A DNA stretch of 44,207 bases, taken from Nitrospinota bacterium (GTDB lineage: Bacteria; UBA8248). Shown here in pieces: positions 2,330 through 44,021 of this stretch (the first letter of the stretch is position 1; the number at the start of each line of letters is the position of its first letter). Location: the NCBI GenBank assembly GCA_030754595.1, contig JASLZZ010000066.1, positions 1-44,207 of the forward strand, written 5' to 3'. A model generated the notes under the pieces. That model made no database searches and was not told where the DNA came from. It saw only the letters and a list, made by a program, of their open reading frames with translations. A program made the translations under genes and the position numbers.

Positions 2330-3226
2330 TCAGTTCCGGAAAGCCGTGATGAAAACCCCGCCTGAGACGACCATGATTGCGGCCACGACGGTGCGCCAGG
2401 TGACCCGCTCGAGCTGCCCCAGAAACAGGTAGCTGACGAGGAGCACCCAGATAGGAGCGGTGCGGCTCAACGGCAGCGTTGTGGAAATGGGGGCGAGGCT
2501 GAAGGAAGTGGTCAAGAGGAAAGCGGTCATGATGTTGAGGCCCCCGGCGGCGAAGATCCAGAAGATGTCCCGGCGGAGAGGCTGCCCACCCTCCCAGCGG
2601 GGAAGGAACGGTCTCCCGGCGAGGAGCACCAGATTCCCCACCGTAAACCCCACAACCAGGGCAACTTCCGGAGTTTCCTGATGCGCGAAGGCGAGCTTGA
2701 CGAAAATGGGCGCTACCGCATAGGCCACCGAAGCGATGAGGGGAAAGATCAGGGCTCCCCGGAACCAGGCCCCGAACGCCTGGGATACGTCCTCCCGGAT
2801 GCTGAGCAGCCAAACCCCGCTCACGATACTCATCGTACCGAAAAGCACCGGGAAGGTCGGTGATTCGCCGAGGACAACGATGGCGATGAGGGTTGCCCAA
2901 ATGGGCGTCGCCGATGAGATGGTTACCGAACGGTTCAGCCCCATTTTCGTGATGCCGATGAGGTGGGAGATCCGCCCGATCCCCGGGCCGGCGATGCCCA
3001 TGGCAACAAACCAGAGGAGCGGAGTGAGAGAGGAGTCCTGAAGCGTTCCCCGGTGGAGGGAGACGGTGAGCCCCCCCAAGCCGACCATCAAGTTGATGAT
3101 GAGGGCGGTCAAGAAGGGAGAAACCGTGCGCATTCCCTGGCGAATACACCCCTGGCCCGTAGCGAAGATTAGGGCGGAACTGATGGCCATCAACTCCCCG
3201 AGCCCCACGTAACGAATCCAATCCAT
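2330..3226 (-). CDS. DMT/EamA-family membrane transporter (start may be GTG 3250)
   Basis: About 10 hydrophobic helices in two repeats with P(I/V)W...LGE motifs (TPIWATLIAIVVLGE; APIWVLLVSYLFLGQLE). Confidence 0.85.
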   Translation of the reverse strand: MDWIRYVGLGELMAISSALIFATGQGCIRQGMRTVSPFLTALIINLMVGLGGLTVSLHRGTLQDSSLTPLLWFVAMGIAGPGIGRISHLIGITKMGLNRSVTISSATPIWATLIAIVVLGESPTFPVLFGTMSIVSGVWLLSIREDVSQAFGAWFRGALIFPLIASVAYAVAPIFVKLAFAHQETPEVALVVGFTVGNLVLLAGRPFLPRWEGGQPLRRDIFWIFAAGGLNIMTAFLLTTSFSLAPISTTLPLSRTAPIWVLLVSYLFLGQLERVTWRTVVAAIMVVSGGVFITAFRN

Positions 3227-3415
3227 CGGCAATCCAAGAGCCAAGGCCACGTTTGAGGCAACGGGCCGCGAGAAATCCGGGAGCGGGTAGAGAAACGAAG
3301 AGTATATCTCCGGCCGGGCATTTCACCCACCGATCTATTCACCGCCGGAAACGGAGCCCTTCAATCACCTGTCCACGGCGAGATGATAATTTTACCTTGA
3401 ATTTAGGCATTTTGC

Positions 3416-3480
3416 CGCCTTGCTCCGAACGACAACGGCCTCCAATCTCTCTCACCATGAAGAATCTTTTCCCGCTTTTC
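3416..3480. repeat. ~65-bp diverged direct repeat, copy 2
   Basis: See 2102-2165. Confidence 0.75.
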
Positions 3481-3794
3481 CCTCGCATCATAGCCACGAT
3501 TGCCTAGCTGCTCACACTTAGTATCCCGAAAGCTCTCGTCTCCGAAAATATTCTCTAAAGCAGCACTTTCTCGTCACAAAACAGTTCGCCGGCGCCATCC
3601 GGAGAGAATATCTGGACCTGTCTCTATTCTGGATCGGAGGCAACCTGGCATGAGAAGCTGGAAGAGTTTCAGGTAAAATACAATGGCCACCGGGTTCATC
3701 AACGAAAAGCCTCTCTTTCGGAACGGCTATTTCTCGGCTGCGCGGCTAGGGTGGGGTTTAGTGGCTGTTGCAAGCGGACAGGTTCGCCGAAGGA

Positions 3795-3851
3795 GAAAAA
3801 ATTCACCCCTGGAGAAGACGAGGGATGGCCGCGCCTCGCTTCTCCAGGGGT
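3795..3851 (-). terminator. Probable intrinsic terminator of the nxr operon
   Basis: 13-bp perfect stem ACCCCTGGAGAAG (3805-3817)/CTTCTCCAGGGGT (3839-3851), plus a 5-bp inner stem, followed on the minus strand by GAATTTTTTC; about 70 nt after the 3922 stop. Confidence 0.7.
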
Positions 3852-3921: not shown

Positions 3922-5481
3922 CTATTCAATCCGGATTTTGTACCAGGTCGTGACGGATTTTTGTCCGTTGCGATCTCCCCGGCTTCCGTCCCATACGGCA
4001 AACGCTATGGGATGAATCATACCCGGAAGAAGTTTTACGTCCTTTTTCCCGCCGCCGTTCAGCACCCGGGTGAATACCACGCGCCATTTGCCTTTCCACC
4101 ACCGCTCGGTGCTTTTCAGGTTCTGTCCGCCAGGCGCCTGCGGCTGAAGCGTACCAAAGCCGGCGGCGTTGAGATCCATCGCCGGCAGAGCAAGGAATGG
4201 GCTCGAGTTGGGATTCTTGGCCGCCCAAGCTGAAATAAACGGTCTTTTCGTGTCGCGCGAAGTGACGATTTTTGCATGACCCATTTTCCTGCGCGGGTAG
4301 ACGCGGCCTGCAAAAGGATAGTCGTCCACGGCCATTCCCGGATACTTCACCTCGACGCCGGTCGTCTTCCGGCCCGGCGCGGCGTTCCAGTACCAGATAT
4401 TCACTAAGTTATCGGCGGAGCCCATGATGAAAAGCGGCGGATCTTTCTCGCGAAGCGAGAACTGGATGGCGGAGCCATCCGCGTAAGAGTTGGTCGATAT
4501 GATTCGCCTGTCGGGCGTCGAATCGGGCCATTCGAGACGAATGGATATTTTCGTTTCGCTGTGCAGCGTCCGGACATCAACTTCCACCGGAGGGCGGCCA
4601 TCGTTATGAATCTGCATCATCGATATCACGGTGGAAGAAGCCGACTTCCATCGCTCATCATTCGTCCGTGTGGGAACATCACCAGTCACTCTTCTGGCCG
4701 GAATCACGCCTGTTCCGGGCTGCCAGAAGTCGCGGCCCTTTGAAAATTTCCGCACATAATGAGCGATGGCGACCAAGTCCTCTGCTTTTTCCACAGTATC
4801 GGCGTGAGAGGGCATCGGAGTTCCCTCGATACCGGTCAGTGTCCTCGTGATAATCGAACGCGCGTCGCCTCCGCCCTTGAACACGCCGCGGGTATAATCG
4901 TTTGGCAGTATGGGACGTTCCTTGTGATCCTTGAGTGTCGGTGCGCTTTCCCCTTTTCCATCTCCTTTATCGCCATGGCATTTATTGCACCCGTATTTCA
5001 AATATGCCTTTTTACCTTTCGAAACCCAGGCATCGGTCGAAGGGGGAATTTTAGCCGGAATCTTGGGAAATTCCTCGGCCGCATCCTCGAAGCCGGCCAG
5101 GGAAAGCACATATTACGACAACGCCTGCAAATCCTTTTCGGGAAAGGAAATGAAACTCGGCATGGTCGATCCGGGAAGACCCAGTCTCAGAGTGTGGACA
5201 ATATCCGAGCGCCTCGGAGGATCTCCCTGAAACGTGGTTCGGAACTTGAAGACCTTGGAGATGAAATCACGAGGTTGCGGGAAAAGAAGATAGGAGGCCT
5301 CGCCGTCGCCCTTGCCCGAGATTCCGTGGCATGCGGCACACTCCCGGTTATAAATCACTTTCCCCTTTGAGGCGAGTTGAGAGTCGATCTTGAACTTCGC
5401 GGCCTCGGCAGTAGCGGCGAGCCCAAAAACCATTACGGCCAAGGCTGCCGCTGAGACAATATATTTTAAAATCATGGTCAT
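3922..5481 (-). pseudogene. nxrC: NxrC-like gamma subunit: signal peptide, two c-type cytochrome domains and an ethylbenzene-dehydrogenase-gamma-like heme-b domain; interrupted by an in-frame TAA at 5113-5115
   Basis: ATG at 5481 after RBS GAGAGGGA; Sec signal ending AEA. CAACH...GSTMPS and CNKCH...GTPMPS heme sites; C-terminal IMG...VNIWYW and IAFAVWDG...RNGQKS. ORFs 5113-5481 and 3922-5109 are in the same frame: DLQALS*YVLSL. Confidence 0.8.
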
Positions 5482-5488
5482 GTCCCTC

Positions 5489-6262
5489 TCAAATGTTGTC
5501 GGAAACGGCATCGCCGCCGGTTTGCCAGTCGGAATGGTCCCACTCGTCTGACGCCACGGGAAGAAGTTCCCCCCGCGAGACGTCGGGCACAGGCTCTGAA
5601 TCCGTCGCCATAAGCTTTTTTTCGGCCTCGATGAATTTATCGAGCAGTTGGGCGGCGTCCCCGTAAATCCCCCGCCCGCTCTGGCGGGCCAACCGCTTGG
5701 CAAAAATGAACACCCATCTGCCAAGATGGTCCTCAATAAACGAGGCTTGAGCCTGTCGGCAGATTTCCGCTTCCTCGGCCTTGCCCTCCTTGAGCGCATG
5801 GGCTTCCTTGAAGGTAACGAGATAGAGGAATTCGAGCTGAATCGAAAGGTGATCGATCCGCTCCTTGCCCTCGCGCGGAGCGACACCGAAAGCGTTGTAG
5901 AAGCCGCCCAGGTCGGCGAGGACATCCGACTGCTGAAAGAGGTGTATATTTCCATATTCGGTCTCATACGGCGGGCAATGCTTGGAAATCGTGTGACCGA
6001 ACACTTCCTGAAATTCGTCCTCAAGTTCCTCGAGGCTAATGCTTTTGCTCAAGGGAAGACCTTCCTTGTATTTGCCAAGGAAGCGGTACTCTTTTTTCTC
6101 GACAAGCTGCGTGCTGGCAAAGGCAAATGAATCGCGCGCCTCGTTGCCTGTAATCTCGGCCCACGATTCTGCATCGGGGTAGCGGAAACAGGCTGCGAGG
6201 TAAGAATAAACGCGGCTCCTCGCCAGGGCTAGCATCGTTTCTGTGGAAATTGTAGCGTTCAT
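5489..6262 (-). CDS. TorD/DmsD-family molybdoenzyme maturation chaperone (NxrD-like)
   Basis: PPYETEY, FYNAFG, ERIDHLSIQLEFL and FIEDHLGRW motifs; lies directly after nxrB. Confidence 0.9.
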   Translation of the reverse strand: MNATISTETMLALARSRVYSYLAACFRYPDAESWAEITGNEARDSFAFASTQLVEKKEYRFLGKYKEGLPLSKSISLEELEDEFQEVFGHTISKHCPPYETEYGNIHLFQQSDVLADLGGFYNAFGVAPREGKERIDHLSIQLEFLYLVTFKEAHALKEGKAEEAEICRQAQASFIEDHLGRWVFIFAKRLARQSGRGIYGDAAQLLDKFIEAEKKLMATDSEPVPDVSRGELLPVASDEWDHSDWQTGGDAVSDNI

Positions 6263-6274
6263 CGATGCCCCTCC

Positions 6275-7549
6275 CTAAATGCTGTTGGCCCGCTCGGCCG
6301 GCCGTTTCTGAAGACCTTCTTCGACCGTCATACGCACAAGCTCGTTGCCCTTGGCGTCGTATCCGATAACCGTGTCGTTGAAGAGCGCCCAGGGCTTGCC
6401 GTTGATCTTCGTTTCGTAGACCTTGGGGCCTTCCTTGATCTCAAAGCGCGCAATGATGGCCTGCTGGGCACGGAAGAGCTGCATGACGGCCAGAAGCTCC
6501 CGCGATGGCGCCGTGTAGCGCTCGATGGCCTCCTCCACACCGGGGCCGAACATCTGGTGCAGATACGGGCGCGGCACCCAGCGCGGGGGGATGTAGTAGC
6601 CGTTCGGTTCGGTTCCGAATTGGGGATAAAGCGGGAGCGCCACTTTTTCTTTTTTGACCAGAAAATATATGGGGTTCTGTGGATCGTTCGACCAGTCTCC
6701 CGTCTTTTTGTCGATACCGACCAGCCCCTGCATCCGGATTTTTCCGACGCAGGCCGCCATGCAGCGCGTCTCCCACGGCGTTCCGTTCGAGAGTTCTTCC
6801 TTGCCCTCGATGCGTGGATAGCAGCCGATGCATTTCTCGCTCGTGCGGGTGTTCGCCCGGAACATCGGTTTTTTGTAGGGGCAGGCCTCGACGCATTTCC
6901 GGTAGCCCCGGCAGCGCTCCTGGTCGATGAGTACGATGCCGTCCTCAGGGCGCTTGTAGATGGCCTTGCGCGGGCAGGCCGCGAGGCAGGCCGGATAGGT
7001 GCAGTGGTTACAGATGCGCTGAAGATAGAAAAACCAGCTATTGTGCTCGGGCAAACTCGCGCCCTGCTTGTCATAGGTGCCCCGGGCGCCCTTTGGGCCT
7101 TTCGCGGCGTCCTCGCCGATGTTGGGGAAGCGCCATTCTTCATCGCTCGGAAGATAGCCGAGAACCCGCTGCGGACCCTCGAGCCCGACCCGCCGGGAGG
7201 CCGCCTCGAACATGGTCATTCCGCCGTAGGCGCCGTAGGGGCGACGGGCGCCGTTCTTTGTGGCATCCCATTCCTGTTTGCCGGGGTTCGCTTTTTCGAG
7301 CATTTGAAGGGATATTACGTCCCAGTTCTGGGGATAGCCCCCGTAAGGCTTGGATTCGACGTTGTTCCACCACATGTACTCTTGGCCCTTAGAGAAAGTC
7401 CAGGTGGACTTGCAGGCCATCGAGCAGGTTTGGCAGCCGATGCAGCGGTTGATGTTAAATACGAAAGCAAACTGGTGGTCGGGGTGTTTCTCCTCATATG
7501 GATACGCCATTTTCCGCCCGAGCTGCCAATTGTATACCTGAGACATCAT
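6275..7549 (-). CDS. nxrB: Nitrite oxidoreductase/nitrate reductase beta (Fe-S) subunit, Nitrospira/anammox type
   Basis: N-terminus VYNWQLGRKMAYPYEE..QFAFVFNINRC. Four Cys groups: CIGCQTCSMAC, CNHCTYPACLAAC, CRGYRKCVEAC, CIGC...CMAAC. Also LPLYPQFGTEPNGYYIPPRW. Confidence 0.95.
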   Translation of the reverse strand: MMSQVYNWQLGRKMAYPYEEKHPDHQFAFVFNINRCIGCQTCSMACKSTWTFSKGQEYMWWNNVESKPYGGYPQNWDVISLQMLEKANPGKQEWDATKNGARRPYGAYGGMTMFEAASRRVGLEGPQRVLGYLPSDEEWRFPNIGEDAAKGPKGARGTYDKQGASLPEHNSWFFYLQRICNHCTYPACLAACPRKAIYKRPEDGIVLIDQERCRGYRKCVEACPYKKPMFRANTRTSEKCIGCYPRIEGKEELSNGTPWETRCMAACVGKIRMQGLVGIDKKTGDWSNDPQNPIYFLVKKEKVALPLYPQFGTEPNGYYIPPRWVPRPYLHQMFGPGVEEAIERYTAPSRELLAVMQLFRAQQAIIARFEIKEGPKVYETKINGKPWALFNDTVIGYDAKGNELVRMTVEEGLQKRPAERANSI

Positions 7550-7558
7550 CCTTCCTCC

Positions 7559-7822
7559 CTATAAATTTACCGGGATCCAGTTGGCCCGGGCTTGTGCGAT
7601 AGCTTCTTTCACGGCGTCTTCGCCTTGGGTGCGAAAAACCCCGTGGGGAACCGAATAAAACGGGTTGCGGAACATCGCTAGAATCTCTTCATCCGACTCA
7701 CCCATCCGCATGAATTCCTCGGCCAGACAGCGGGCCATCTCGGATTCCATCTCACCATCCTCGGGCATGGGCATGGAGATAAGCTCCATCGGATCTTCGT
7801 GATCGAATTCATCCTTTGGCAT
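7559..7822 (-). CDS. Small acidic hypothetical protein between nxrA and nxrB
   Basis: 87 aa, 4 nt from nxrA and 9 nt from nxrB; EDPMEL and LAEEFMRMG...MFRNPFY segments look protein-like. Confidence 0.8.
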   Translation of the reverse strand: MPKDEFDHEDPMELISMPMPEDGEMESEMARCLAEEFMRMGESDEEILAMFRNPFYSVPHGVFRTQGEDAVKEAIAQARANWIPVNL

Positions 7823-7826
7823 CTCT

Positions 7827-10800
7827 TCATCCCCTCTTCACTTTGACGGTGCCCTGGAGGTAGCTCTGCATGAACTTGTTTTCGTTGCCGACCGAAAAAC
7901 CGGTCGTGGCGGGCGCCCAGACGCCCCGTCCTCCCAAGCCGCCGTCTTCGGCCTTGGTGAGTTTGACCAGGGTCTCCTTGGGAACGGTGTTGATGGCGTG
8001 GTTGTCGGCCTCGCCGCCCAGCATGAAGCCCATGAAAACCTTCTTTTTATGGAAAAGGTTGTCGAGCTGGTGCATGGGCATGAGCCAGCCGCGCGTGATC
8101 GACTGGTGGGAACCATAGCGGTAGCTCGCCTGGTAGCCCGTGTCAGCGGATACCGCGCGGCCGTCCTTTCGCGTTTCGTGCCCCTTGACGCTCTTTTCCG
8201 TGGCGCACCAAGCGCCGTGCTTGATCATCACCACGTCGTAGGGGTAGGAGGGGTTGTATTTCACCCGCAGCATCAAGCGCGCCACCTTGTAGAATGGATC
8301 ACTCGGCTTCCAGCCGATGTAGGGCCGATCCGCCGGGTTGGCGTCCACGTAAACGTAATCGCCTTCATTGAAACCCAGGTCCTTCGCGGCCTCGGGGTTC
8401 ATCTGCACCTGGTTCTCGCCCACCCCGGGCTGGCGACGATCCATGCGGTAGGGGTCGCCGAAGCTGGTCGACCAGATGAAGTTCCAGTCAGTCACCTGCC
8501 ACGATGAGTGGGTTAAATGCCGGCTCTTCGGGGTGAGACAGAAGAACCGGTAGCCGGCCTCCCATAGCGGGTTCTTCGTATCCTTGGCCTCCTTCCAGGG
8601 AAGCTTGATGTTGCGGACCTGGCGCTCGTCCCAGCCCATGTGGTTTTCCGGGATGCCGTAGTCCTCGGGCCTGATGAAGGGACTCGAACTGATGATGACG
8701 TTCGGCAGATAGGGCGTTCCCTCCGGGCCCTCGCGTTGGACGATGAGGTTCTCCCCGTATTCGATGACCCCGGGCTCGTCGTTATAGGCCTGGAGCCTTC
8801 CGGTCGGAGAATAGAAGGGAACCGACTCCTCGATCTGCTCTAGGAAAGGAACGCGCGGATAGGAGCGGAAGAGCATCAAGGCGGTGCCGGATTCTCCGTA
8901 TTTACCCGCCATGATATCGTCGTATTTATAACCACGGGTCGGGGTCGACGAATCCAGCAGGCGCTGGATGTATACCTCGGCCTTTTTGTCTAGGGCGAAT
9001 TTCCAGTATTTCTCGAAGCGTTTGTCCTTGAGAATCTCTCCCAACTTCTTGGCCATCTCGGCCATGATGAGAATGTCATCCTTGGTATCGTAGATGGGCT
9101 TCACGCCCCCCTTCCAGATCTGGAGGAAGGGGTTCGAGCACGACCCCGTAATCTCGGGCTGCTCGAATTCCATCCAGGTGTTCGCCGGAAGGAGAATATC
9201 CGAGTATTCGGCAGTGGAGGTCATCTCGATTTCCGAGCAGATGATCATCTCAATTTTCGGATTTACGTTCTTGACCATTTCATAAAGCCATTTGGCGTTG
9301 TTGAAGATGTTCACGTTCGTAAACCAAAGAGACTTCGTTGGGGAGGGCATATGGGTTTTGCCGGTGAAGACCTTGCGCCCATATTTCGGGGTATCCACGA
9401 CAAGAGGCTTGTCGCCGTAGTTCCAATATGCGGGCTCTTCGTCCTTGATGGTGCCCCGCACCTTGATGTTTTTTCCGTCCGCCTTCGGGTCGAGATTGGG
9501 ATTGAAGGGATCCTCCGCAATCCAGCCCTTGAAGCCGGGGCCGCTCCAATCCGAACCCTGGAACAGGGCTGCCTTGTAGTTTCCCGCCCAAGTATGGCAA
9601 CCCGCGCCGAGTTTACCGATGTTCCCCGTAAGGGTCATGGGAAGATACTGGGCCCGGTTGGTCATGGTCGCGTGGAACCAGTGGTTGACTCCTTCGCCCA
9701 CATGCAGGGCGGCGGGCTTGATCGTCGCCACGTCCTTGGCGAATCGCTCAATAAGATCTTTTGGCGAATGGGTAATCTCGTGGACGGTGTCGAGATCGTA
9801 GTCCTTGAGATGGTGGGACTTATACATTTCAAAAACCGGCATCACCTCGATTTCCACGCCGCTCACCAGCTTGACTGTGTATTTGCCTTCAAGAGACGGG
9901 TCAAGATTTTTCGCGCCAATGTGCTTACCCACATCGTCGCGCGTGATGGGCGCCGGCGCATTCTTTCCCTTGTCCCAGATCATGAAGTCGCCCGCGGCAT
10001 CGCGATATTTCGGGGTGAGCCCATGGATTTTAAATGAGGGTCCGCCTGAAATGTCCTGATTCTTGTAGCCGGGAATCACATCCTGAGGCCTAAGCCGCCG
10101 CAGGTTGTCAGTGCGGACAAGAAGCGGAAAATCTGTGAATTCCTTGACGAATTTCGCGTCATACCATCCCCGATCGATGAGAATTTTCGTCACACCAAGG
10201 AGAAGGGCTGTGTCAGTCTGCGGACGGATAGGAATCCAATAGTCGGCCTTCGTCGCCGGCGGGCTGTATTCGGGCGCAACAACGATGATCTTTGCTCCCC
10301 GCTCCATCGACTCCATAAAGAAATGGGAATCGGGACGCTTATTCTCGACGAGATTTTTTCCCATGTGGATATGAAGCTTCGAGTTGCGCAAATCGTTGAA
10401 ATCGCAATCCGATGCCTGAAGACCATGAACGAAAGGATGCCCCGGCGCCTGATCGCCGTGCCATGTGTAATTCGACCAGGCGCGACCGCCGCGGGCCTTC
10501 TTGGGCCCGACGCCCCGGGTGTGGGTGTCAAGGAGTGACATGGTGTTGGCGAACCGGTACATGCCGTACTTGCCGATGACGCCGAGCAGGCCCATGCCGC
10601 CCCGGAATTTCATCGTCCGCGTGCCGGCCCCGTCCCAATGGGTCAGCGACGCCGGATCGTAGCCCTGGTCGAGAAGACGTTTTTTACCCGCATCGCCGCT
10701 GTAGGTCTTCGATATCTGAATGAATCCCTTGGAAGCATAAGTGAAGGCATCGTCCCATTTCACGCGGACGAAAGTATCGGTGCCGCGCGAGTCGAACTTG

Positions 10801-11270
10801 TATTTTTTCTTGTTCGCCTCGTTGAGCTCCGGGAAACCGTCGTCGGCCCACCTTTTCCACCCGCGCCGGACCATCGGGTAGCGAAGACGGTAGGGTCCGT
10901 ACATGCGCCGCTGGAAGGTGAATCCGTTGGGGCATCCCCTGGGGTTCCAGTGATGGGTGGCCTTGACACCGTAGATGTCGGTGATGCGGTGCTTGTCGTA
11001 GTTCTGCTCGGTGCGCAGAACGATGCCGTTGCGGGTGAAGGCCTTGAGGCGGCATTCGTGAGTGCAGTTGGGCGAACAGACCCAGGTGAACGATCCATCC
11101 ACCTTGTACTGGTCCCGGTAGACTTTTTCCCATCCGCGGTTCGGGTAGTTCGTGAGAGGGTTCCCCATTTCACCGGTGGGGTGCAAGGCCGCTAGCGCGA
11201 GGCCCCTGCCGCTCCATGCGAGTAACCCGCTGCCGCTCGCGGCAAGAAACTTGCGTCTGGATAATTTCAT
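7827..11270 (-). CDS. nxrA: Nitrite oxidoreductase/nitrate reductase alpha subunit (Mo-bis-PGD, DMSO reductase type II), Tat-exported
   Basis: RBS GGAGG before ATG 11270; Tat motif SRRKFL; 1147 aa. YPNRGWEKVYRDQY, WVCSPNCTHEC...WNPRGC, GAGTRTMKFRGGMGLLG, WSNYTWHGDQAPGHP (Asp Mo ligand) and DNHAINTVPKETLVK are all characteristic of periplasmic NXR. Confidence 0.95.
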   Translation of the reverse strand: MKLSRRKFLAASGSGLLAWSGRGLALAALHPTGEMGNPLTNYPNRGWEKVYRDQYKVDGSFTWVCSPNCTHECRLKAFTRNGIVLRTEQNYDKHRITDIYGVKATHHWNPRGCPNGFTFQRRMYGPYRLRYPMVRRGWKRWADDGFPELNEANKKKYKFDSRGTDTFVRVKWDDAFTYASKGFIQISKTYSGDAGKKRLLDQGYDPASLTHWDGAGTRTMKFRGGMGLLGVIGKYGMYRFANTMSLLDTHTRGVGPKKARGGRAWSNYTWHGDQAPGHPFVHGLQASDCDFNDLRNSKLHIHMGKNLVENKRPDSHFFMESMERGAKIIVVAPEYSPPATKADYWIPIRPQTDTALLLGVTKILIDRGWYDAKFVKEFTDFPLLVRTDNLRRLRPQDVIPGYKNQDISGGPSFKIHGLTPKYRDAAGDFMIWDKGKNAPAPITRDDVGKHIGAKNLDPSLEGKYTVKLVSGVEIEVMPVFEMYKSHHLKDYDLDTVHEITHSPKDLIERFAKDVATIKPAALHVGEGVNHWFHATMTNRAQYLPMTLTGNIGKLGAGCHTWAGNYKAALFQGSDWSGPGFKGWIAEDPFNPNLDPKADGKNIKVRGTIKDEEPAYWNYGDKPLVVDTPKYGRKVFTGKTHMPSPTKSLWFTNVNIFNNAKWLYEMVKNVNPKIEMIICSEIEMTSTAEYSDILLPANTWMEFEQPEITGSCSNPFLQIWKGGVKPIYDTKDDILIMAEMAKKLGEILKDKRFEKYWKFALDKKAEVYIQRLLDSSTPTRGYKYDDIMAGKYGESGTALMLFRSYPRVPFLEQIEESVPFYSPTGRLQAYNDEPGVIEYGENLIVQREGPEGTPYLPNVIISSSPFIRPEDYGIPENHMGWDERQVRNIKLPWKEAKDTKNPLWEAGYRFFCLTPKSRHLTHSSWQVTDWNFIWSTSFGDPYRMDRRQPGVGENQVQMNPEAAKDLGFNEGDYVYVDANPADRPYIGWKPSDPFYKVARLMLRVKYNPSYPYDVVMIKHGAWCATEKSVKGHETRKDGRAVSADTGYQASYRYGSHQSITRGWLMPMHQLDNLFHKKKVFMGFMLGGEADNHAINTVPKETLVKLTKAEDGGLGGRGVWAPATTGFSVGNENKFMQSYLQGTVKVKRG

Positions 11271-11312
11271 TTCAGATATCCTCCATACCTGAGCCACAAA
11301 AAATGTTGAGGT

Positions 11313-12284
11313 TCATTCGATGATTTTGCGTGTTATGCCGGGTGAATTCGTCGAAAACGCCGCCGTGAACAGATAACGGTTGGCGCATTGTGAGCAAATG
11401 CCCTGGGTAGGCTCCCAGGCGGGATACTCTTCATTCACGGCCCGCGAAAGCTCCTCCGTCGGTTCGGCCCATTCGTGTGTCGGAAACTGGCAAAGCGGAC
11501 AAGAAGAGCCCGGCCCGAACGTGGGCTGGAACTCGCCTTCACCGAAAATTTCGGCGGCAATATTCAAAACGGCGCATAGCGATACCGCGCCCGTGACCAT
11601 CTGGCGAAGCTCTCCGCTAGACGGCCGGCGATCGTTCCAAAGGGCGGCAAAGACCTGCTCCGCAGCCTCGACGCCCAGGTTCAGGAAGAGGGATCTAAAT
11701 TCACTGACCCGCCGATCCTTGAGGTCTTGAGGAAGAAACCCTTTTCGCTCAAGCCTTCCGTCGACGGAAAGATCCCACAGCGTGCGGTATCGGTCGCGGA
11801 AAAGAGATTCTTCAGAGGGAGAAACTTCAGAGAGGGGGCGGGAGGTATCGTAGTCAAAAGCTGGATCTAGAATGTCGAGGATATGAGTTAATTCGTGACG
11901 CAGAAGATAGGCGCACTGCTCCGGGTCGCGGAGAGTTTCGGCCCTGATCTGAAAACCAAGGCGAACGCCGTCTTCGCTGAGCTGGGCGCCCTCCTCATCT
12001 TCCCTGAATGTGCGGGCGAAATAACACTCCTCCGGAAATCCATCACCACCGGAAAATTCCTCCAAAATGCCTTTTACTCGTTCGGTGTAACCGAGCTTCG
12101 AAAAGAAACGGCGGTAGAGGGTAAAAAAAGAAGTTTCGCGTTTGCGGAGCGTCACCTTGGTGTATATTTCGTCGGCCTGTTTTCGAAAAGAATCCCTTAA
12201 TTGGAAATCACCCTTTGAGAGCCCATCCTGAAATTCATTCTCGACCAAAATCTCACAAAGAGCATCGTTAAAGGTTAAAAACAT
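11313..12284 (-). CDS. Hypothetical protein with HExxH motif and C-terminal CxxC...CxxC, first gene of the nxr operon
   Basis: RBS AAGGAGGTG; LRHELTH; CPLC...CSQC; 42 nt upstream of the nxrA start. Confidence 0.8.
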   Translation of the reverse strand: MFLTFNDALCEILVENEFQDGLSKGDFQLRDSFRKQADEIYTKVTLRKRETSFFTLYRRFFSKLGYTERVKGILEEFSGGDGFPEECYFARTFREDEEGAQLSEDGVRLGFQIRAETLRDPEQCAYLLRHELTHILDILDPAFDYDTSRPLSEVSPSEESLFRDRYRTLWDLSVDGRLERKGFLPQDLKDRRVSEFRSLFLNLGVEAAEQVFAALWNDRRPSSGELRQMVTGAVSLCAVLNIAAEIFGEGEFQPTFGPGSSCPLCQFPTHEWAEPTEELSRAVNEEYPAWEPTQGICSQCANRYLFTAAFSTNSPGITRKIIE

Positions 12285-12589
12285 TATCTCACCTCCTTAT
12301 AGAAACACCGCAATCCGCCGGTCCAACTCGGAACGATCATTTCCAATCCTGGCCAATCACTCATTTGGGATGCATTTATCCCTTTTAGGTATAAAAAAAT
12401 TGGGGTTTACTCATTTCCTTGAGTATGAATTTCAGATTCCACAAAAGTTCCACCTGGGTTTGGGTATTAGGTTAAAAACCGCGCGAGTTATCACATATCG
12501 AAATCCCTGCGCAGAAATATCGATTTACTTTTCGATTCAAGAGTTAAAGTAAAGAGAAAAAATATATACGAGTTTCTTATCCTATATTC

Positions 12590-12618
12590 AGTATATATAT
12601 CACCAACACTTCCCGCAA
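12590..12618 (-). promoter_or_regulatory. Candidate sigma70 promoter of the nxr operon within an AT-rich intergenic region
   Basis: Minus strand TTGCGG-17 nt-TATACT, about 300 nt upstream of 12284. Confidence 0.35.
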
Positions 12619-12894
12619 GCATTATTATAAGAATGAGCTTGTTTGTTTATATCACACTGAATATAAATGAATTATACGAAATTCCCCTTGTAATAAATAT
12701 TGTATATTGTATTTAATCAGGGCCATTTTGAAAGGCAAATTATCAAAATACTCCTGCCGTGTCCCGTAGTATTTGGGCCCACCAGAAACCAAGGACTGTT
12801 GAAATTTTGGCTTATAACTCATCCTGATAGAGATTACGGACACAAACGAATATTTGGAAAGGGCGGGTTATGCCGGATTTGTGGATGGGGCCGC

Positions 12895-13689
12895 CTAACG
12901 GCCGTTGAAGCGCGGCTTTCGCTTTTCAATGAACGCCTGCCGTCCTTCGGCATAGTCCTGGCTATCAAAGCAAATTTTAACGATCTGCTCGATGGCTTCC
13001 AAATTACGGGTGGGGGGATCCTTGAGAACTTCGGCGACGGTTATTTTTGTCGCCTTCACCGAAAGGGGTGCATTCGAGGCAATCGTGGCGGCCATCTCAC
13101 AAACGGCGTCTCCGAGTTCATCCACCGGAACAACCCGGTTTACGAGACCGATCCTCAGCGCCTCTTCGGCGGAAAAACGCCTCGCCGAGAAAAGAATTTC
13201 CTTGGCAAAGGACGGGCCAACCAGATTCACAAGCTGTTCAAGGCTCTCGTAGCCGTAGGCAATGCCCAGGCGGGCGGCCGGAATGCCAAGCTGGGCGTCC
13301 TCAGAAGCGATGCGAATATCCGCACTCATGGCCACGGACAACCCGCCACCCAGGCAATAACCCCTGATCATGGCGATCAGGGGCTTATCGAGACTCGACA
13401 GTTTCCGCCTTGCCCCGGCCGACATGGCGGAATAACGCTCGGCCTGCTCGGCGTTCTTTCGTTGATCCTCGAACTGCGAGATATCGGCCCCTGAGACGAA
13501 AGCCTTATCTCCCGCGCCTTTCATGACGACCACCCGGACCGCGTCGTCCCGCTGAAATGAATCTAGAATGGCGGCGATGGCTTCCCACATTTCAAGGGAA
13601 AGCGCATTCCGGCGTTCGGGATTATTGAAAATCATCCAGCCGATCCCGTCTCCGGTCTCGGCGATCATTTTATCCGTGTTGAGTTTCAT
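12895..13689 (-). CDS. Enoyl-CoA hydratase/isomerase (crotonase) family
   Basis: FNNPERRNAL, AFVSGADI, KPLIAMIRGYCLGGG, AEEALRIGLVNRVV, EGRQAFIEKRKP. Confidence 0.93.
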   Translation of the reverse strand: MKLNTDKMIAETGDGIGWMIFNNPERRNALSLEMWEAIAAILDSFQRDDAVRVVVMKGAGDKAFVSGADISQFEDQRKNAEQAERYSAMSAGARRKLSSLDKPLIAMIRGYCLGGGLSVAMSADIRIASEDAQLGIPAARLGIAYGYESLEQLVNLVGPSFAKEILFSARRFSAEEALRIGLVNRVVPVDELGDAVCEMAATIASNAPLSVKATKITVAEVLKDPPTRNLEAIEQIVKICFDSQDYAEGRQAFIEKRKPRFNGR

Positions 13690-16576: not shown

Positions 16577-16723
16577 CTTACCCAATTTAAAGCATGGCTG
16601 AACTCCGCAAAAACGCTATCCCCGATCGGGCCACGGGAGGAGCCGTCCGGTAATCGTGGTGAAGTCCATTCAGCGCCGGCCTGGAGACCACCTTTTCCTC
16701 TTCTGCCATCAGGCGCCGGTCCG

Positions 16724-16800
16724 GCGCTCCAAAATAATTGGACCCAAAAAAAATTCAAGACTTTTAAAATCCGACCTAAATCCCATTCAACCTGCAATAA
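16724..16800. repeat. Left part of the ~220-bp inverted-repeat-bounded element
   Basis: gcgctccaaaataattggacccaaaaaaaattcaagacttttaaaatccgacctaaatcccattcaa aligns with 39755-39820 gcgctccgcgataattggttcccaaaaaaaatttcaaagctttgaattccgataaaatccaattcaa. Confidence 0.75.
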
Positions 16801-19666: not shown

Positions 19667-19781
19667 TTTTCCCCCTCCAAGGAATATTCCGATTTCGGAT
19701 AGACATGCGAAAGAAAAGAATTGAGGCGCGACGAGTGCTCGGGAAGGACATCTCCTGGATTTGCCTCTTGCCGGAGGAGAG

Positions 19782-21086
19782 CTATATTTTCTCTTCCGAC
19801 TCCAGCGCGGCCAACGCCTGTTGCACCAACTGACAGCGCAGCTTCTTTTCTTCTTCCGGCGACAAGGTCGGATCGCCTGTGACGTTAACGATCCCGTGTC
19901 CGAGGATGACCCGGGTGGAACCTATCATCTTGGCGATTGGCATGGCCGACGTCACCTGCACCACAGGGATTCCGGCCTTCTCCAACTCCGTCGTAATCGC
20001 AGCGCCGCTGCGGGTGCTGGTGCCTCACGTCGAAGTGAGGATGACGGCGTCTACGCCTTCTTCCTTGACCTTCTCCACCATCTCTTTGCCCATTCTGCGC
20101 GTGTTGGATAGAGGATTCCCAAGTCCCGATGTCGAAATAAACTCGTTATGCAACTCGCCGATAGCCCCTTCTTTCTCAAGTTCACGCAAGGCATCCAGGG
20201 GCACTAGCCGGTGGGGGTCTTCTTTAACGAACTTCGGATCGTAGCCACCGTGCGATATCTCATAGTCCTCGCTCTTCAAATCGTCGAGACCTTCCAGGTT
20301 ATAAGTCCCCCACCTCGTAGCGGCCATCCCTTCGATATTATCCGGATTGCCCTTGGGAACGAGTCCGCCATCGGTAATCACCATGACCTTGGCGTTCGAG
20401 ATGTCCTTGACGGCAACAGGCATGAGGATTGGTTCGAAGGAAGTCGATACCATTTCCGACTCAAACGGCTCGCCCTTTACCTTGGCCAAGAGCATATCCA
20501 CCAATCGCCTGCCCGCCGTTTGCTCCACGAATTCGTCGCGAATCAGTCCCCTGATTAGGTAGCCTTCCTCGGAGGGCGAACCGATTTTTTCGTTGTTCAT
20601 CATCTTCTTGCTCAGGTCCGCCATCTTTACCATGACGCCGCGCATCTCGGCTGCCTGACGGCCAGAGTCGATGATGTACAATGATTCGCGGTACAGGTCC
20701 GTACCGGGGTTTTCCTCGCTCATTCCCGTTACCACCGGGATCCCAAGCTCCGACTGGACGGCGGCGCAAATAGCCCCGGCGGCCATTCCGTAGCGTCCCG
20801 CCTCGAAACATGGGCCAGCCACGAAAAGCTCGGCCCGGGCTTTCTTCACCTCATCCACGACGGAGGCAACCACCTCATCTTGATGCTCAACAGCATGGTT
20901 GTCGCCGCATATAAATGTGGTGACAATTTCAGCGCCCTCGCCCATCATTTGCTCAAGCAGGAGGCCCGGCCCTACCGCGCCGGCTCTCTCTTCAAGCGGA
21001 GACCCGGCGGCTTCCTCTCCGCCGACCCCGCCAAAGAACTGATTGACGTAGTGTACGATTCGCAACTTGACCCCCCCCTCCTTCAC
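19782..21086 (-). CDS. grdB: Glycine/betaine/sarcosine reductase selenoprotein B-like; Sec encoded by TGA 20025-20027
   Basis: IVHYVNQFFGG, GPCFEAGRYG, TDGGLVPKGNPD, HGGYD, DAVILTST-UGA-GTSTRSG...ELEKAGIPVV. ORFs 20025-21086 and 19782-19985 are in one frame, and the TGA is at the conserved Sec position. Confidence 0.9.
19998..20012 (-). promoter_or_regulatory. Candidate bacterial SECIS hairpin
   Basis: mRNA UGA + 12 nt + CGCAGC-GGC-GCUGCG: perfect 6-bp stem with a G-starting loop 18 nt from the UGA. Confidence 0.6.
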
Positions 21087-21106
21087 TCCCGATCGCCGAA
21101 TTCGCC

Positions 21107-22387
21107 TTAATATATTACGGCCCGCAGGCGCGTTGCGCCCTGCTGGTTGAGAATGCCCACGATACTAGCGGCTCCGATCTCCTGAGACATCGCCAGCGCC
21201 TCGGTCAGGTCCGGGTGGCCCGCGACGACGCGCTCCGCGCGTGGAACCTTCCATATGGTATCGACTCCGCCACAATATACTATCGCGTCAACATCGGGAA
21301 AATTGAACAGCAGAGCCGATTCGATCCGCCGGTCTTTCGCCATATCCGACACCATGACCGCCGTGCGTATCCCCGCGCCTTCCAGCAGATTCGCGGTAAT
21401 CGCCATATCCGAATGCGGCACGCCTCCGCCGAATTTGGTAAGAACCGCGGCATCGGGTTTCAGGCTCCATTTGGCGAGGTTGGCCGCGGCCTGGCAATTT
21501 CGGTCGCGATCTTCGTTGTCGGAGCCGGCTATCGTCGCCACGGTCCCGACGAAGCTCAACTCTCCCGCTTCATGGCGCCGGTAGAGGTCAGTGATTACCG
21601 GATGGTTTTGATAGAAGTAGGTCTCCGCGCCGCCGAGAGACAGTGTATAGGATGGCACGATAGCCCCGTCCAACCACTCGTCGGGATGGAGCAGGAGAGG
21701 CATCATGCCGTTCGTGTTGGCGCCGTAGATGACCTGTTCGTCTATCTCCGGCGATCGCTGGCGAGAGAATATTTGCCCGACATAGGCCACCCGCGGCAGC
21801 CCTTCGCGCCCCTCCACCATGGGGCCAACAGCGTCAAAGGTCGTGGTTTCGGCGGACGTCTCACCCATCGCGGCTTGAGCCAGATAGACCACCGCTTTCA
21901 TTCCCGCGCGGCGAGTCGCGTTGAGCTTGATGTGCGTAGCCAATTCCGGACGCGCGTGCGGCGCCACGATGAAATGTTGAAGCGACGAATAAGGCGACCA
22001 CTCGCCGGCGGGACCGCTCATCTCCAAAACGCGGCCGACCCGCCCCTCCGTATCCGCCACGGACCCCTCGATCAACACCGTCACCGCCGCTCCTTCAAGA
22101 ACGTGGGTCGTTCCCGTTCCGGCGGTGGCGGGCGTGTTCAGGATGCCGGGAAAGTCAGGGCTCGAGCCGGGCTCCTTCGCCCGAGGTTCGATGATGTCGA
22201 ATACGGGACCGACTCGGCAGTTCTCACCGGCGCGGACAGTCTCCAGGTCTACGCTCTGAAGACGGTCATCGGCCAGAAGCAGGGCCCTCAACTCCTCGGC
22301 ATCGACGAGAAGGGATGTCCCGTCCAAGCGCGTTTTATCGCCAAAATTAATTTCCGTGACGGGATGACGGGCAAGAGTCAATTGCAT
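21107..22387 (-). CDS. Glycine/sarcosine/betaine reductase component B proprotein (GrdE/GrdI-like)
   Basis: DIIEPRAK..FPG, GTGTTHVLEG, LLHPDEWLDGAIV, YQNHPVI..LY.RH, DAAVLTKFGGGVPHSD; 20 nt upstream of grdB. Confidence 0.82.
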   Translation of the reverse strand: MQLTLARHPVTEINFGDKTRLDGTSLLVDAEELRALLLADDRLQSVDLETVRAGENCRVGPVFDIIEPRAKEPGSSPDFPGILNTPATAGTGTTHVLEGAAVTVLIEGSVADTEGRVGRVLEMSGPAGEWSPYSSLQHFIVAPHARPELATHIKLNATRRAGMKAVVYLAQAAMGETSAETTTFDAVGPMVEGREGLPRVAYVGQIFSRQRSPEIDEQVIYGANTNGMMPLLLHPDEWLDGAIVPSYTLSLGGAETYFYQNHPVITDLYRRHEAGELSFVGTVATIAGSDNEDRDRNCQAAANLAKWSLKPDAAVLTKFGGGVPHSDMAITANLLEGAGIRTAVMVSDMAKDRRIESALLFNFPDVDAIVYCGGVDTIWKVPRAERVVAGHPDLTEALAMSQEIGAASIVGILNQQGATRLRAVIY

Positions 22388-42338: not shown

Positions 42339-44021
42339 ATGCCCCTGTCAACCTTATCATGTCTGCGTGAGCTTAATTCCCTCAATAGGGAGTTTGGCGA
42401 CAATGCGTTGGGACGGAAGATTGAGCTCCTAAGATTTCTCGAACGCCGGAGACTTAATAAAGCAAAAGAGGTGGCACAGTTTCACGACATTCTTTGCTTC
42501 ATGCGCGCTTGGCCAAGTGGTCAGGAAATTCTTGAAGTCACCGAGCGGATTTTAGAAGGATTTGAAAATAGAAGCGATCTCCGTCGATTCCACAACCAAC
42601 TGGAGGGAAGTGGCATCGCCGGGACCGTCATTTCGTATCGATTTTTCCATCCGACCGCGGAATGGCTAGCGGAGCGCTGGGGCCATCGACTCCAGATTGA
42701 TTGGCCGGAATTCGAAAACGCTGCAAACCTGGAGAGTTTCCTGTCTATCCTCGTGAGCTACGCCGAGACACCGGCATTGGATGAATACGATTTTGGTGCG
42801 CGCGTTTGGATCGAACGGATGAAGAATCCAGGCGAGACCGACGCCGTATTTCTGATCAGAAGCTTTAAAGCCCTTCATGCAGATTCATTTCTACAGGAAA
42901 AATTATACGAGGATTTGGATCCGCCCTTGCGCCTACTTCCGGGCGCTGACACCCCTTCACGCTCAACTGAGAAATTTCCGACAAAGCGTATCACTTGGCA
43001 AAAAGAGCCGATTCAGAATCAACGCCCCGACCTGAAAGCGGCGATCCGTTCCTCGAGTTTCAAAATGAACAAACTCGGTACCGGGCAAGCACGCCGCGCC
43101 GTAGAGTTGGCGCGGGGGACAATGGTCGCGCGCCTTCGAGATCTCGATGCCTTCGCCTATGCGAACCCGAATGACGTCCGCATCGCCGACTGCGGTGAGG
43201 GTGTGCAGGTTCTCCTGACGGGGGTTCTGCCGAAGCGGCGCCTGCTGCTGGAGTCCCTCTACGGTTTTTTGCTCCTCAAGAACGGCATTCCAATCGGCTA
43301 CGGGACAGGGGCAGGTCTTTTTTCCTCATGTGAGGTCGCTTTCAATCTGTTCCCTGCCTTTCGAGGAGGTGAGACTGCGCTTATCTACTCGTTGGTCCTC
43401 GCGATTTTCCGGCGGTTGTTCGATGCCGATACCTTTATGGTCGATCCCTATCAATTGGGGCAGGACAACGAGGAGGCCCTTCATTCTGGCGCTTGGTGGT
43501 TCTATGCAAATCTGGGATTCATGCCGCTCGAGCCGGCGGCCTTGCGCTTGGCGCGAACCGAGATGAGCCGTCGGAGAAAGAGAGCCGGATACCGCTCTTC
43601 AATTTCGGCGCTCGAAAGGCTCTCCCAATATCCGGTTTTTCTTGAACTCAGGCGAAAACGCCGGGGTGTGCTCGGGACGCTGAACCTGGCCGCGGTGGGG
43701 CTGGCCGTGACGGATTTGATGGCCCGCCGCTTCGGTTCGGACCGGAAGGGCGGAACGCGTCAGTGTGCCATGGAAGTGGCTCATCTCTTGAAGGCTGGGT
43801 CACTCAATAATACGACCGCCGACGAGCGGGAGGCATGGGAAAGGTGGAGTCCACTTGTTCTCGCCCTCGGCTCCGTCCATCGTTGGCCACGGAAAGACCA
43901 GCGCGCCCTTGTCGAGGTTATACGAGCCAAGGGCGGGCATCACGAATCCGACTTTGTCCCGTTGTTCGATGGCCATCAACGACTTAGAAAAGGGATTCAG
44001 CGGATGGCCGAAAGCGGTTAA
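42339..44021 (+). CDS. Hypothetical protein, 560 aa, with a possible GNAT-like region
   Basis: Long ORF with RBS GGGAGA; FPAFRGG and SGAWWFYANLGF segments. Confidence 0.75.
   Translation: MPLSTLSCLRELNSLNREFGDNALGRKIELLRFLERRRLNKAKEVAQFHDILCFMRAWPSGQEILEVTERILEGFENRSDLRRFHNQLEGSGIAGTVISYRFFHPTAEWLAERWGHRLQIDWPEFENAANLESFLSILVSYAETPALDEYDFGARVWIERMKNPGETDAVFLIRSFKALHADSFLQEKLYEDLDPPLRLLPGADTPSRSTEKFPTKRITWQKEPIQNQRPDLKAAIRSSSFKMNKLGTGQARRAVELARGTMVARLRDLDAFAYANPNDVRIADCGEGVQVLLTGVLPKRRLLLESLYGFLLLKNGIPIGYGTGAGLFSSCEVAFNLFPAFRGGETALIYSLVLAIFRRLFDADTFMVDPYQLGQDNEEALHSGAWWFYANLGFMPLEPAALRLARTEMSRRRKRAGYRSSISALERLSQYPVFLELRRKRRGVLGTLNLAAVGLAVTDLMARRFGSDRKGGTRQCAMEVAHLLKAGSLNNTTADEREAWERWSPLVLALGSVHRWPRKDQRALVEVIRAKGGHHESDFVPLFDGHQRLRKGIQRMAESG

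Follow-up and report, generated by a model that had tools for sequence, protein, structure and literature searches.

Nitrite oxidoreductase (NXR) of the periplasmic type is widely taken to mark nitrite oxidisers, and its presence in a bacterium that looks like a heterotroph raises the question of which way the enzyme works there. We address this question for an nxr operon on a contig of 44,207 nucleotides (JASLZZ010000066.1; hereafter the window, meaning this whole stretch) from the assembly GCA_030754595.1, deposited as a Nitrospinota bacterium of the UBA8248 lineage. The assembly (G000; window contig C66) is 96.9% complete and 6.4% contaminated; other genomes carry labels with G, and loci or contigs labels with L. 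Our preferred answer, to which we give about an even chance (roughly 0.5), is that the operon encodes an accessory periplasmic reductase that would turn nitrate into nitrite in an organoheterotroph short of oxygen. This reading builds on features observed at the locus and in its family, namely the gene set, an export motif, the catalytic residues, the lack of key carbon-fixation genes and a patchy distribution.

Results

The window encodes an NXR of the periplasmic type

Six closely packed genes on the minus strand, with gaps of 4–42 bases, encode a 323-residue protein, NxrA, an 87-residue protein, NxrB, a TorD-like chaperone and a gamma-like cytochrome (Table 1). A previous sequence-only reading of the window had described a self-contained four-gene operon. 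The four genes it named are borne out, that is nxrA with a Tat signal, nxrB, the TorD chaperone (by PF02613) and the gamma-like cytochrome (by PF00034 and PF09459), and so is a tight operon, with a terminator-like long hairpin (3851–3805) and a U-run behind the last gene, none of 200 shuffles being as stable; the gene number has to be corrected to six, including the conserved 323- and 87-residue proteins. The complete gene order recurs in the close relatives L001, L003 and L005 (45 loci compared), and the locus of ODZ_NOB7a (L001) has the identical six genes and flanks, at 89–99% identity to the window.

Among solved structures, NxrA matched Kuenenia NXR-A with 1810 bits, against 234 for perchlorate reductase, 164 for ethylbenzene dehydrogenase and at most 136 for NarG; its identity is 64% to the Kuenenia and 61% to the Nitrospina protein. 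NxrB matched Kuenenia NXR-B with 612 bits (E 5.5e-183). The enzyme is thus of the type that had been proposed, in the lineage of anammox and Nitrospina NxrA and far from NarG, PcrA and EbdA, and its closest solved relative is a nitrogen-oxide enzyme, which speaks against a place in a clade with other substrates. Translation of nxrA likely starts at the ATG at 11270, behind a GGAGG site; the twin-arginine start MKLSRRKFL was read by eye, relatives share it, and on this motif NxrA is predicted to be exported to the periplasm. On its own branch nxrA has accumulated five amino-acid and 57 silent changes, and is under strong purifying selection. In an alignment, NxrA keeps the Kuenenia active-site and tunnel residues N70, D275, N312, E527, K917 and E1088; Tyr528 of PMC8387239 did not map, the alignment having Gly at that number, and was left out of the comparison. 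In vitro, Kuenenia NXR is able to reduce nitrate (PMC8387239), and we agree with the earlier reading that the direction of catalysis cannot be read from sequence.

Four Cys ligands at FS0 mark a clade of uncultured bacteria

Cys69 of NxrA stands at the position of Kuenenia Asp71 and, together with Cys113, gives four Cys ligands at the iron-sulfur cluster FS0. In NXRs and nitrate reductases (NARs) FS0 is described as 3Cys/Asp or 3Cys/His (PMC8387239), 3Cys/His being given as general (PMC8840923), and the window enzyme departs from the 3Cys/1Asp coordination of the periplasmic NXR lineage. Among the 120 best homologues the position is Cys in 56 and Asp in 62, the motif missing in two fragments. 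Two trees were built, a 104-sequence FastTree and a 49-sequence IQ-TREE with two motif columns masked; neither contains a named Nitrospira-genus NxrA, none having been returned by the homologue searches, nor the Hydrogenobacter-type enzyme. Save for one separate gain of Cys, the four-Cys sequences form one group (FastTree support 0.995; IQ-TREE SH-aLRT 100), sister to the Asp lineages in one tree and nested among them in the other. The group leaves out Nitrospina, Kuenenia, Brocadia, Jettenia and Scalindua, and a joint clade of UBA8248 and Nitrospina NxrA is rejected (log-likelihood 374 lower, approximately unbiased test p-AU 2e-14; 8 rows against 41). The trees thus do not show nesting inside a known nitrite-oxidiser or anammox genus, which the earlier reading had named, together with membership of the genome in that genus, as fatal to it.

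All labels in the four-Cys group are of uncultured organisms (NC10/Rokubacteria, Planctomycetes, Bdellovibrionota, Myxococcaceae, Thermoanaerobaculia and Marinimicrobia). Close homologues are in fact labelled NC10/Rokubacteria, Planctomycetes, Chloroflexi, Omnitrophica, Bdellovibrionota and others, and the claim that this NxrAB type is a marker of Nitrospira, Nitrospina and anammox bacteria cannot be upheld. Four changes are linked in 45 of 45 four-Cys sequences: D71C, K117N, M314R and V922T (Kuenenia numbering). K117 aligns with the basic residue that follows the fourth FS0 Cys; in E. coli NarG, replacing this Arg or the His ligand reportedly lowers the FS0 potential or activity. Three far more distant proteins (37–43% identity) likewise have Cys at both positions. 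We considered the FS0 ligand as a marker of direction and rejected it, since according to the referee file of PMC8387239 position 71 carries a phylogenetic and not a functional signal. No published description of a four-Cys FS0 in these enzymes was found, although subscription papers and figures may hold one, and the clade with its linked residues appears to be unreported.

The gamma gene is broken and a second cluster carries an intact orthologue

The gamma product has a signal-like leader, two CxxCH haem-c domains and one haem-b domain, with no membrane helix beyond the leader. Its haem-b part retains the ligands Met155 and Lys305 of Kuenenia NXR-C and its haem-c part matches 6h5l_B, a build of the ‘alt_NxrC’ type described for Nitrospina (PMC3578206). 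The gene, starting at 5481, is interrupted by a TAA (5115–5113) after codon 122. At this site a Glu codon is found in 16 of 18 aligned loci, several of the 16 being near-copies of each other, and TAA in the window and in L105, a metagenome contig 99.95% identical to it; where family genomes match over the full length, in eight cases, the gamma frame is open, at 515–562 codons. An assembly error was rejected as the cause. Four of 23 listed runs were compared in detail, and in three DNA runs from three studies, one of which may be the source of the window, the contig over the site differs from the window at 1, 1 and 3 positions, none of them in the TAA; the X3 and X4 contigs, from other studies, keep the TAA, although contigs hide rare alleles. 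Because contigs of several runs match at the site, the stop is the majority allele of the window's species in several samples. Read-through with selenocysteine or pyrrolysine was also rejected, the codon being TAA and relatives having Glu. Beyond the stop, the remaining piece lacks a hydrophobic leader and is not expected to be exported, so that, with its gamma gene broken, the operon is not self-contained as had been claimed. Relaxed selection on the gamma gene, suggested by eight amino-acid against seven silent changes in its 5′ part on its own branch, could not be sustained, since the counts are too small and other genes are also higher on this branch.

A second NXR cluster lies on contig C33 of G000 (L045, L067). 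Its NxrA is 63% identical to the window NxrA, has Asp at FS0 and falls outside the four-Cys group; a ‘TGA inside’ its match proved to be just the stop codon of the gene. C33 also encodes NxrB, a chaperone, three dihaem-c/haem-b proteins, a bd-like protein, two further cytochromes and a radical-SAM enzyme. One of the three dihaem-c/haem-b proteins is an intact orthologue of the broken gamma (64% identity), and is preceded by short remnants of the 323-residue gene and the chaperone, which look like what is left of a window-type operon after loss of the A and B genes. Losses at the two loci thus appear to be complementary. PCP_red-domain proteins and a USP-rubredoxin protein were also seen in the C33 cluster. 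Rrf2-family regulators precede both this cluster (L045:15140–15781) and an oxidase operon (L066:7461–11559), with an Rrf2-like relic near the left end of C33.

C33 is likely in the same cell as the window. Among 55 mid-sized contigs it has the most deviant tetranucleotide profile, and a locus from another family of the order matches it at 91% identity; the GC content of C33 at third codon positions fits G000, and the contig ends in repeats common to 14 and 3 other G000 contigs, at 96–99% identity. The right end bears what we take to be an IS21-type, IstB-like tail. A metagenome scan for longer contigs joining C33 to the chromosome returned two 99% copies, both ending near the same place.

The host belongs to UBA8248 and carries the operon as an accessory element

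A stretch of RpoB is 97% identical to that of the L001 genome (ODZ_NOB7a, UBA8248), 65% to a Nitrospina-type genome and 52% to Scalindua. On this one marker, the host is placed in the phylum UBA8248 (Spongiamicota), close to ‘ODZ NOB7’. GTDB places UBA8248 apart from Nitrospinota proper (PMC10839748), and the type genome of Spongiamicota was inferred to be organoheterotrophic, with a possible Wood–Ljungdahl pathway (PMC11920076). In PMC11373643, groups NOB7–10 are in UBA8248, their metagenome-assembled genomes (MAGs) being called nitrite-oxidising bacteria (NOB) by taxonomy and their nxrB forming a distant leaf. The nxrB of such MAGs being published, the host is hardly ‘unrecognised’; it is, as the heterotroph branch of the sequence-only reading supposed, heterotroph-like and outside Nitrospira, Nitrospina and the anammox bacteria.

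The operon is patchily distributed, nxrA being found in 12 of 37 family genomes and two of four congeners. In the congener G002 the flanking EamA and enoyl-CoA hydratase genes are separated by 1.8 kb that hold a flavin monooxygenase-like gene instead of the operon, so that the absence of nxr at this site is not a binning gap. On this distribution the operon is accessory, unlike a core energy gene. Next to the operon of G012, an NnrS gene was seen directly 3′ (L168:6249–7688).

Window DNA was found in marine or seawater metagenome runs of several studies. Relatives are reported to peak below the oxic–anoxic interface and to go undetected in Tara oxic samples, and the nxrB clones expressed in oxygen-deficient zones belonged to NOB1, NOB2 and SAG_1a, not to UBA8248 groups (PMC11373643, in its accessible text). 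RNA runs contained only 5–6% of the window's sequence words, and run X18 gave four short near-identical contigs, in nxrA, the 87-residue gene and nxrB, at a depth of 2–3, too little to use.

The family shows no key gene of carbon fixation

In 42 family genomes we found neither RuBisCO nor the acetyl-CoA synthase CdhC, positive controls having worked, and no orthologue of an ATP-citrate lyase (ACL)-like beta subunit (best match 40.7 bits, at most 35% identity); the ACL query came from a Nitrospina-type genome, its identity resting on a citrate-binding domain and a citryl-CoA-synthetase-like partner. A weak ACL domain match in G000 proved to be succinyl-CoA-ligase-like. Fhs was not found in G000, and no G000 protein had the size or motif of the 3-hydroxypropionate enzymes. 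A ‘mixotrophic’ host, as had been suggested, finds no support in these results. NirK was not found over cut-off in the 42 genomes, nor NarG or NapA among 11 molybdopterin loci of G000; a CuA-motif scan aimed at NosZ returned only CoxB and one unrelated protein, the family search being silent even for controls. G000 encodes malate synthase G, many catabolic enzymes, three 2-oxoacid:ferredoxin oxidoreductases and two Rieske/cytochrome b complexes, each with an octahaem HAO-like cytochrome as its third subunit (L151:4199–7028, L152:4508–7409).

The single haem-copper oxidase found in G000 is, on its motifs, of the A family. B-family oxidase genes occur in five of 42 family genomes, all nxr-positive, and in G006 ba3-like genes adjoin the nxr operon at its 3′ end, in convergent orientation (L165:8028–10178); as 23 of the 42 genomes are of one nxr-negative genus, this link is no statistical test. 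A COX1 search gave an A-family oxidase of about 670 residues and 510 bits in most family genomes and only a 586-residue type in G000, from whose assembly an oxidase may be missing. The A-family oxidase of G000 disagrees with PMC11373643, where cbb3 is given as present and aa3 oxidase as absent in all groups. A bd-like protein, mono- and dihaem cytochromes and cupredoxins are conserved in Nitrospina, Nitrospira and Kuenenia (PMC3578206). The window operon has neither bd-like protein nor small cytochromes nor cupredoxins, the first together with cytochromes being on C33; within 28 family genomes, two have a bd-like protein and 10 have nxrA. In a further G000 locus (L149, on C51), genes for 4-, 5- and 10-haem cytochromes are clustered with those for a cNMP-binding ferredoxin and for an NAD-binding oxidoreductase.

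Accessory proteins, control regions and neighbourhood

The 323- and 87-residue proteins have no Pfam or NCBIfam match. The 323-residue gene adjoins nxr in Scalindua, Hydrothermarchaeum and planctomycete loci; in 20 sequences E131 and four Cys are invariant and H130 and H134 conserved in at least 90%, and the fold matches the zincin type, weakly (best Z 5.7, root-mean-square deviation 4.8; Atlas scores below the bar). It is probably the counterpart of the ‘putative zinc finger’ protein in the conserved set of PMC3578206. The 87-residue gene travels with nxr in planctomycete and gemmatimonad loci, with nine invariant columns among 16 aligned homologues. The best NCBIfam match of the chaperone, TIGR03482, is below its cut-off.

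Table 1. Features of the nxr operon and its flanks (window positions).
Feature	Position	Strand	Basis or remark
323-aa accessory protein	11313..12284	−	HExxH zincin-like domain and C-terminal four-Cys zinc finger
nxrA, catalytic molybdopterin subunit, 1147 aa from ATG 11270 (likely start)	7827..11270	−	64% identity to Kuenenia NXR-A
Twin-arginine (Tat) motif MKLSRRKFL of NxrA	11244..11270	−	read from sequence; relatives start alike
FS0 iron-sulfur motif CSPNCTHEC of NxrA	11052..11078	−	Cys69 at Kuenenia Asp71 position
Asp273 of NxrA, molybdenum ligand (= Kuenenia Asp275)	10452..10454	−	alignment; role from PMC8387239
87-aa conserved protein, 3′ of nxrA	7559..7822	−	16 homologues aligned
nxrB, iron-sulfur subunit	6275..7549	−	Kuenenia NXR-B match, 612 bits
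TorD/NarJ-type chaperone	5489..6262	−	PF02613 over cut-off
gamma (alt-NxrC-type) gene, broken into 122 and 396 codons	3922..5481	−	PF00034 and PF09459
In-frame TAA in gamma gene, Glu position in relatives	5113..5115	−	18-locus alignment
Terminator-like hairpin and U-run	3796..3851	−	fold z −3.5
AT-rich upstream region, 38% GC, presumed promoter region	12285..12894	.	base composition
EamA transporter gene, downstream flank of operon slot	2330..3250	−	family search
Enoyl-CoA hydratase gene, upstream flank of operon slot	12895..13689	−	family search

The terminator-like hairpin is single-copy in G000 and was not among the sites listed by a consensus terminator scan; promoter and terminator scans of the window gave counts at chance level. 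Upstream of the operon (12285–12894) no FNR box was found at two or fewer mismatches, and no conserved operator across eight aligned loci. The window also encodes an AMP-binding ligase, hydantoinase A/B, an amidase and glycine-reductase subunits, in agreement with the hydantoinase, amidase and reductase neighbours noted before. The GrdB-like frame (19779–22387, minus strand) continues for about 80 codons past an in-frame TGA in a TSTUG context, which likely encodes selenocysteine, and contig C18 of G000 (L183, L185) carries another GrdB/GrdE pair as well as a GrdA containing a single TGA. Such glycine/betaine reductase genes are unusual in an oxygen-respiring marine bacterium; Fhs, as said above, was not found. 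A 560-residue open reading frame (42339–44021, plus strand) has no Pfam or NCBIfam match. A repeat at 1–280 matches many G000 contig ends at 96–100%, and short repeats at 2055–2171, 3363–3701 and 16600–16800 recur in congeners at 70–85%.

Discussion

In the scheme that we prefer, organic substrates would reduce quinone, and one of the two Rieske/cytochrome b/octahaem complexes would pass the electrons to a periplasmic cytochrome c; a dihaem-c/haem-b gamma subunit would then feed NxrB, FS0 and the molybdenum, where nitrate would be reduced to nitrite, presumably without further reduction. Since the gamma gene of the operon is broken, NxrAB most likely borrows the intact C33 gamma, provided that C33 is in the same cell. 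That the host shows no key CO2-fixation genes makes nitrate respiration likelier than a living on nitrite.

The support for nitrate reduction is nonetheless indirect throughout, and several points weigh against it. The Kuenenia enzyme, whose catalytic residues NxrA retains, also oxidises nitrite; C33 bears the whole bd-like module that nitrite oxidisers typically have; and G000 has a haem-copper oxidase, while the B-family oxidase of its kin keeps company with nxr.

The foremost alternative, which we regard as possible but rather doubtful, is nitrite oxidation without autotrophy: the cell would live on organic carbon and, with oxygen present, gain extra proton-motive force by sending nitrite electrons by way of NXR and cytochrome c on to an oxygen reductase, perhaps with reversal under anoxia. 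The periplasmic location with a conserved active site, the A-family oxidase, the B-family oxidase confined to nxr-positive kin and adjoining the operon in G006, and the C33 cluster with its bd-like module all fit, and PMC9306079 raises a like possibility for other MAGs. However, a shared low-oxygen habitat would also produce the oxidase link, the kin are not independent, the G000 assembly itself has no B-family oxidase, and the expressed nxrB clones came from other groups. On general bioenergetics, moreover, a cell limited by oxygen gains far more from each oxygen with electrons from organic matter than with those from nitrite. A related idea, which we hold to be a shade more doubtful still, is that UBA8248 are nitrite oxidisers that do not fix CO2, in which the four-Cys NXR, built from the window A and B and the C33 gamma, would act as a reversible switch, oxidising nitrite through a high-affinity oxidase at trace oxygen and reducing nitrate without oxygen.

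It is unlikely that the operon is in early decay in this species, with the C33 cluster working instead, or neither. The nonsense codon as majority allele, the absence of the operon from two of four congeners and the changes in the 5′ part of gamma would agree with decay; against it stand the strong constraint on nxrA on the same branch, the intact state of the other genes, the small gamma counts on a branch where other genes are also raised and, as a weak hint, the four short RNA-library contigs. More improbable yet is a shift of the four-Cys clade to another oxyanion such as chlorate or selenate: the linked changes are found throughout the clade and our literature searches turned up no assayed four-Cys member, but all six active-site and tunnel residues are unchanged and perchlorate reductase and ethylbenzene dehydrogenase score far below NXR. 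Finally, a canonical chemolithoautotrophic nitrite oxidiser, as the ‘ODZ NOB7’ label implies, is very improbable, for although PMC11373643 lists UBA8248 MAGs as NOB with abundances that correlate positively with nitrite oxidation rates, a preprint lists two as putative chemoautotrophs on marker genes (10.64898/2026.01.13.699260), PMC11920076 allows the Wood–Ljungdahl pathway in the type genome of the phylum, three 2-oxoacid:ferredoxin oxidoreductases are present and a reversed oxidative tricarboxylic acid (TCA) cycle would be compatible with the gene content, the NOB assignment in PMC11373643 was by taxonomy, the key CO2-fixation enzymes were not found in the family, and nxr, in a minority of its genomes and replaced in the G002 slot, is not a core gene of the lineage.

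The A and B subunits of Kuenenia stuttgartiensis NXR-ABC (PDB 7B04) are the best solved relatives of the window enzyme, which retains the Mo ligand, N70, N312, E527, K917 and the haem-b Met/Lys pair and has a soluble gamma; it differs in the four-Cys FS0 in place of 3Cys/Asp, in K117N, M314R and V922T, in a gamma that is fused to two haem-c domains and broken, and in an operon of six genes against 15. With Nitrospina gracilis (PMC3578206) it shares a Tat-exported A subunit, a haem-c/haem-b gamma, a TorD chaperone and a zinc-finger protein, but identity is 61%, a joint clade is rejected, the host has no key enzyme of the reverse TCA cycle and the window operon has no bd-like module. Closest are the UBA8248 nxrB of ‘ODZ NOB7, 8, 10’ (PMC11373643), ODZ_NOB7a sharing the six genes, the flanks and an RpoB at 97%, with its gamma gene, unlike that of the window, intact; the accessible text of that paper gives nxrB phylogeny and gene presence for these groups, and no operon, FS0 or carbon-fixation analysis was found in it. 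The periplasmic nitrate reductase of Hydrogenobacter thermophilus (PMC6050957) is an outward-facing type II molybdoenzyme shown to reduce nitrate, as we propose here, although it is membrane-bound and of another lineage, sister to the Nitrotoga type.

NXR-like genes in non-autotrophs are already known as a general phenomenon, from seven MAGs (PMC9306079) and further ones (10.1101/2020.05.19.103440) without carbon fixation, 111 nxrA MAGs (PMC10359470) and 665 sequences of the periplasmic lineage (PMC12823411), and NXR and NAR are held to be indistinguishable by phylogeny (PMC10839748). The first three of these studies resemble ours in enzyme lineage, in the absence of carbon fixation and in leaving the direction open, and in their accessible text the four-Cys clade is not set apart. 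What appears to be unreported, besides that clade, is the broken gamma gene with its complementary second cluster, and UBA8248 ‘NOB’ without carbon-fixation genes that carry the operon as an accessory.

Surveys count nxrAB of the periplasmic type and UBA8248 genomes as nitrite oxidisers. If the hosts are nitrate-reducing heterotrophs, some of the ‘NOB’ signal from oxygen-deficient water stands for the reverse process; if instead the reversible switch operates, part of marine nitrite oxidation would be decoupled from carbon fixation. The four-Cys clade, recognisable by CSPNCTH together with N117, R314 and T922, is a defined group over many uncultured phyla, and opens to testing both the determinants of catalytic direction in NXR-type enzymes and the possible importance of the unusual FS0 ligand.

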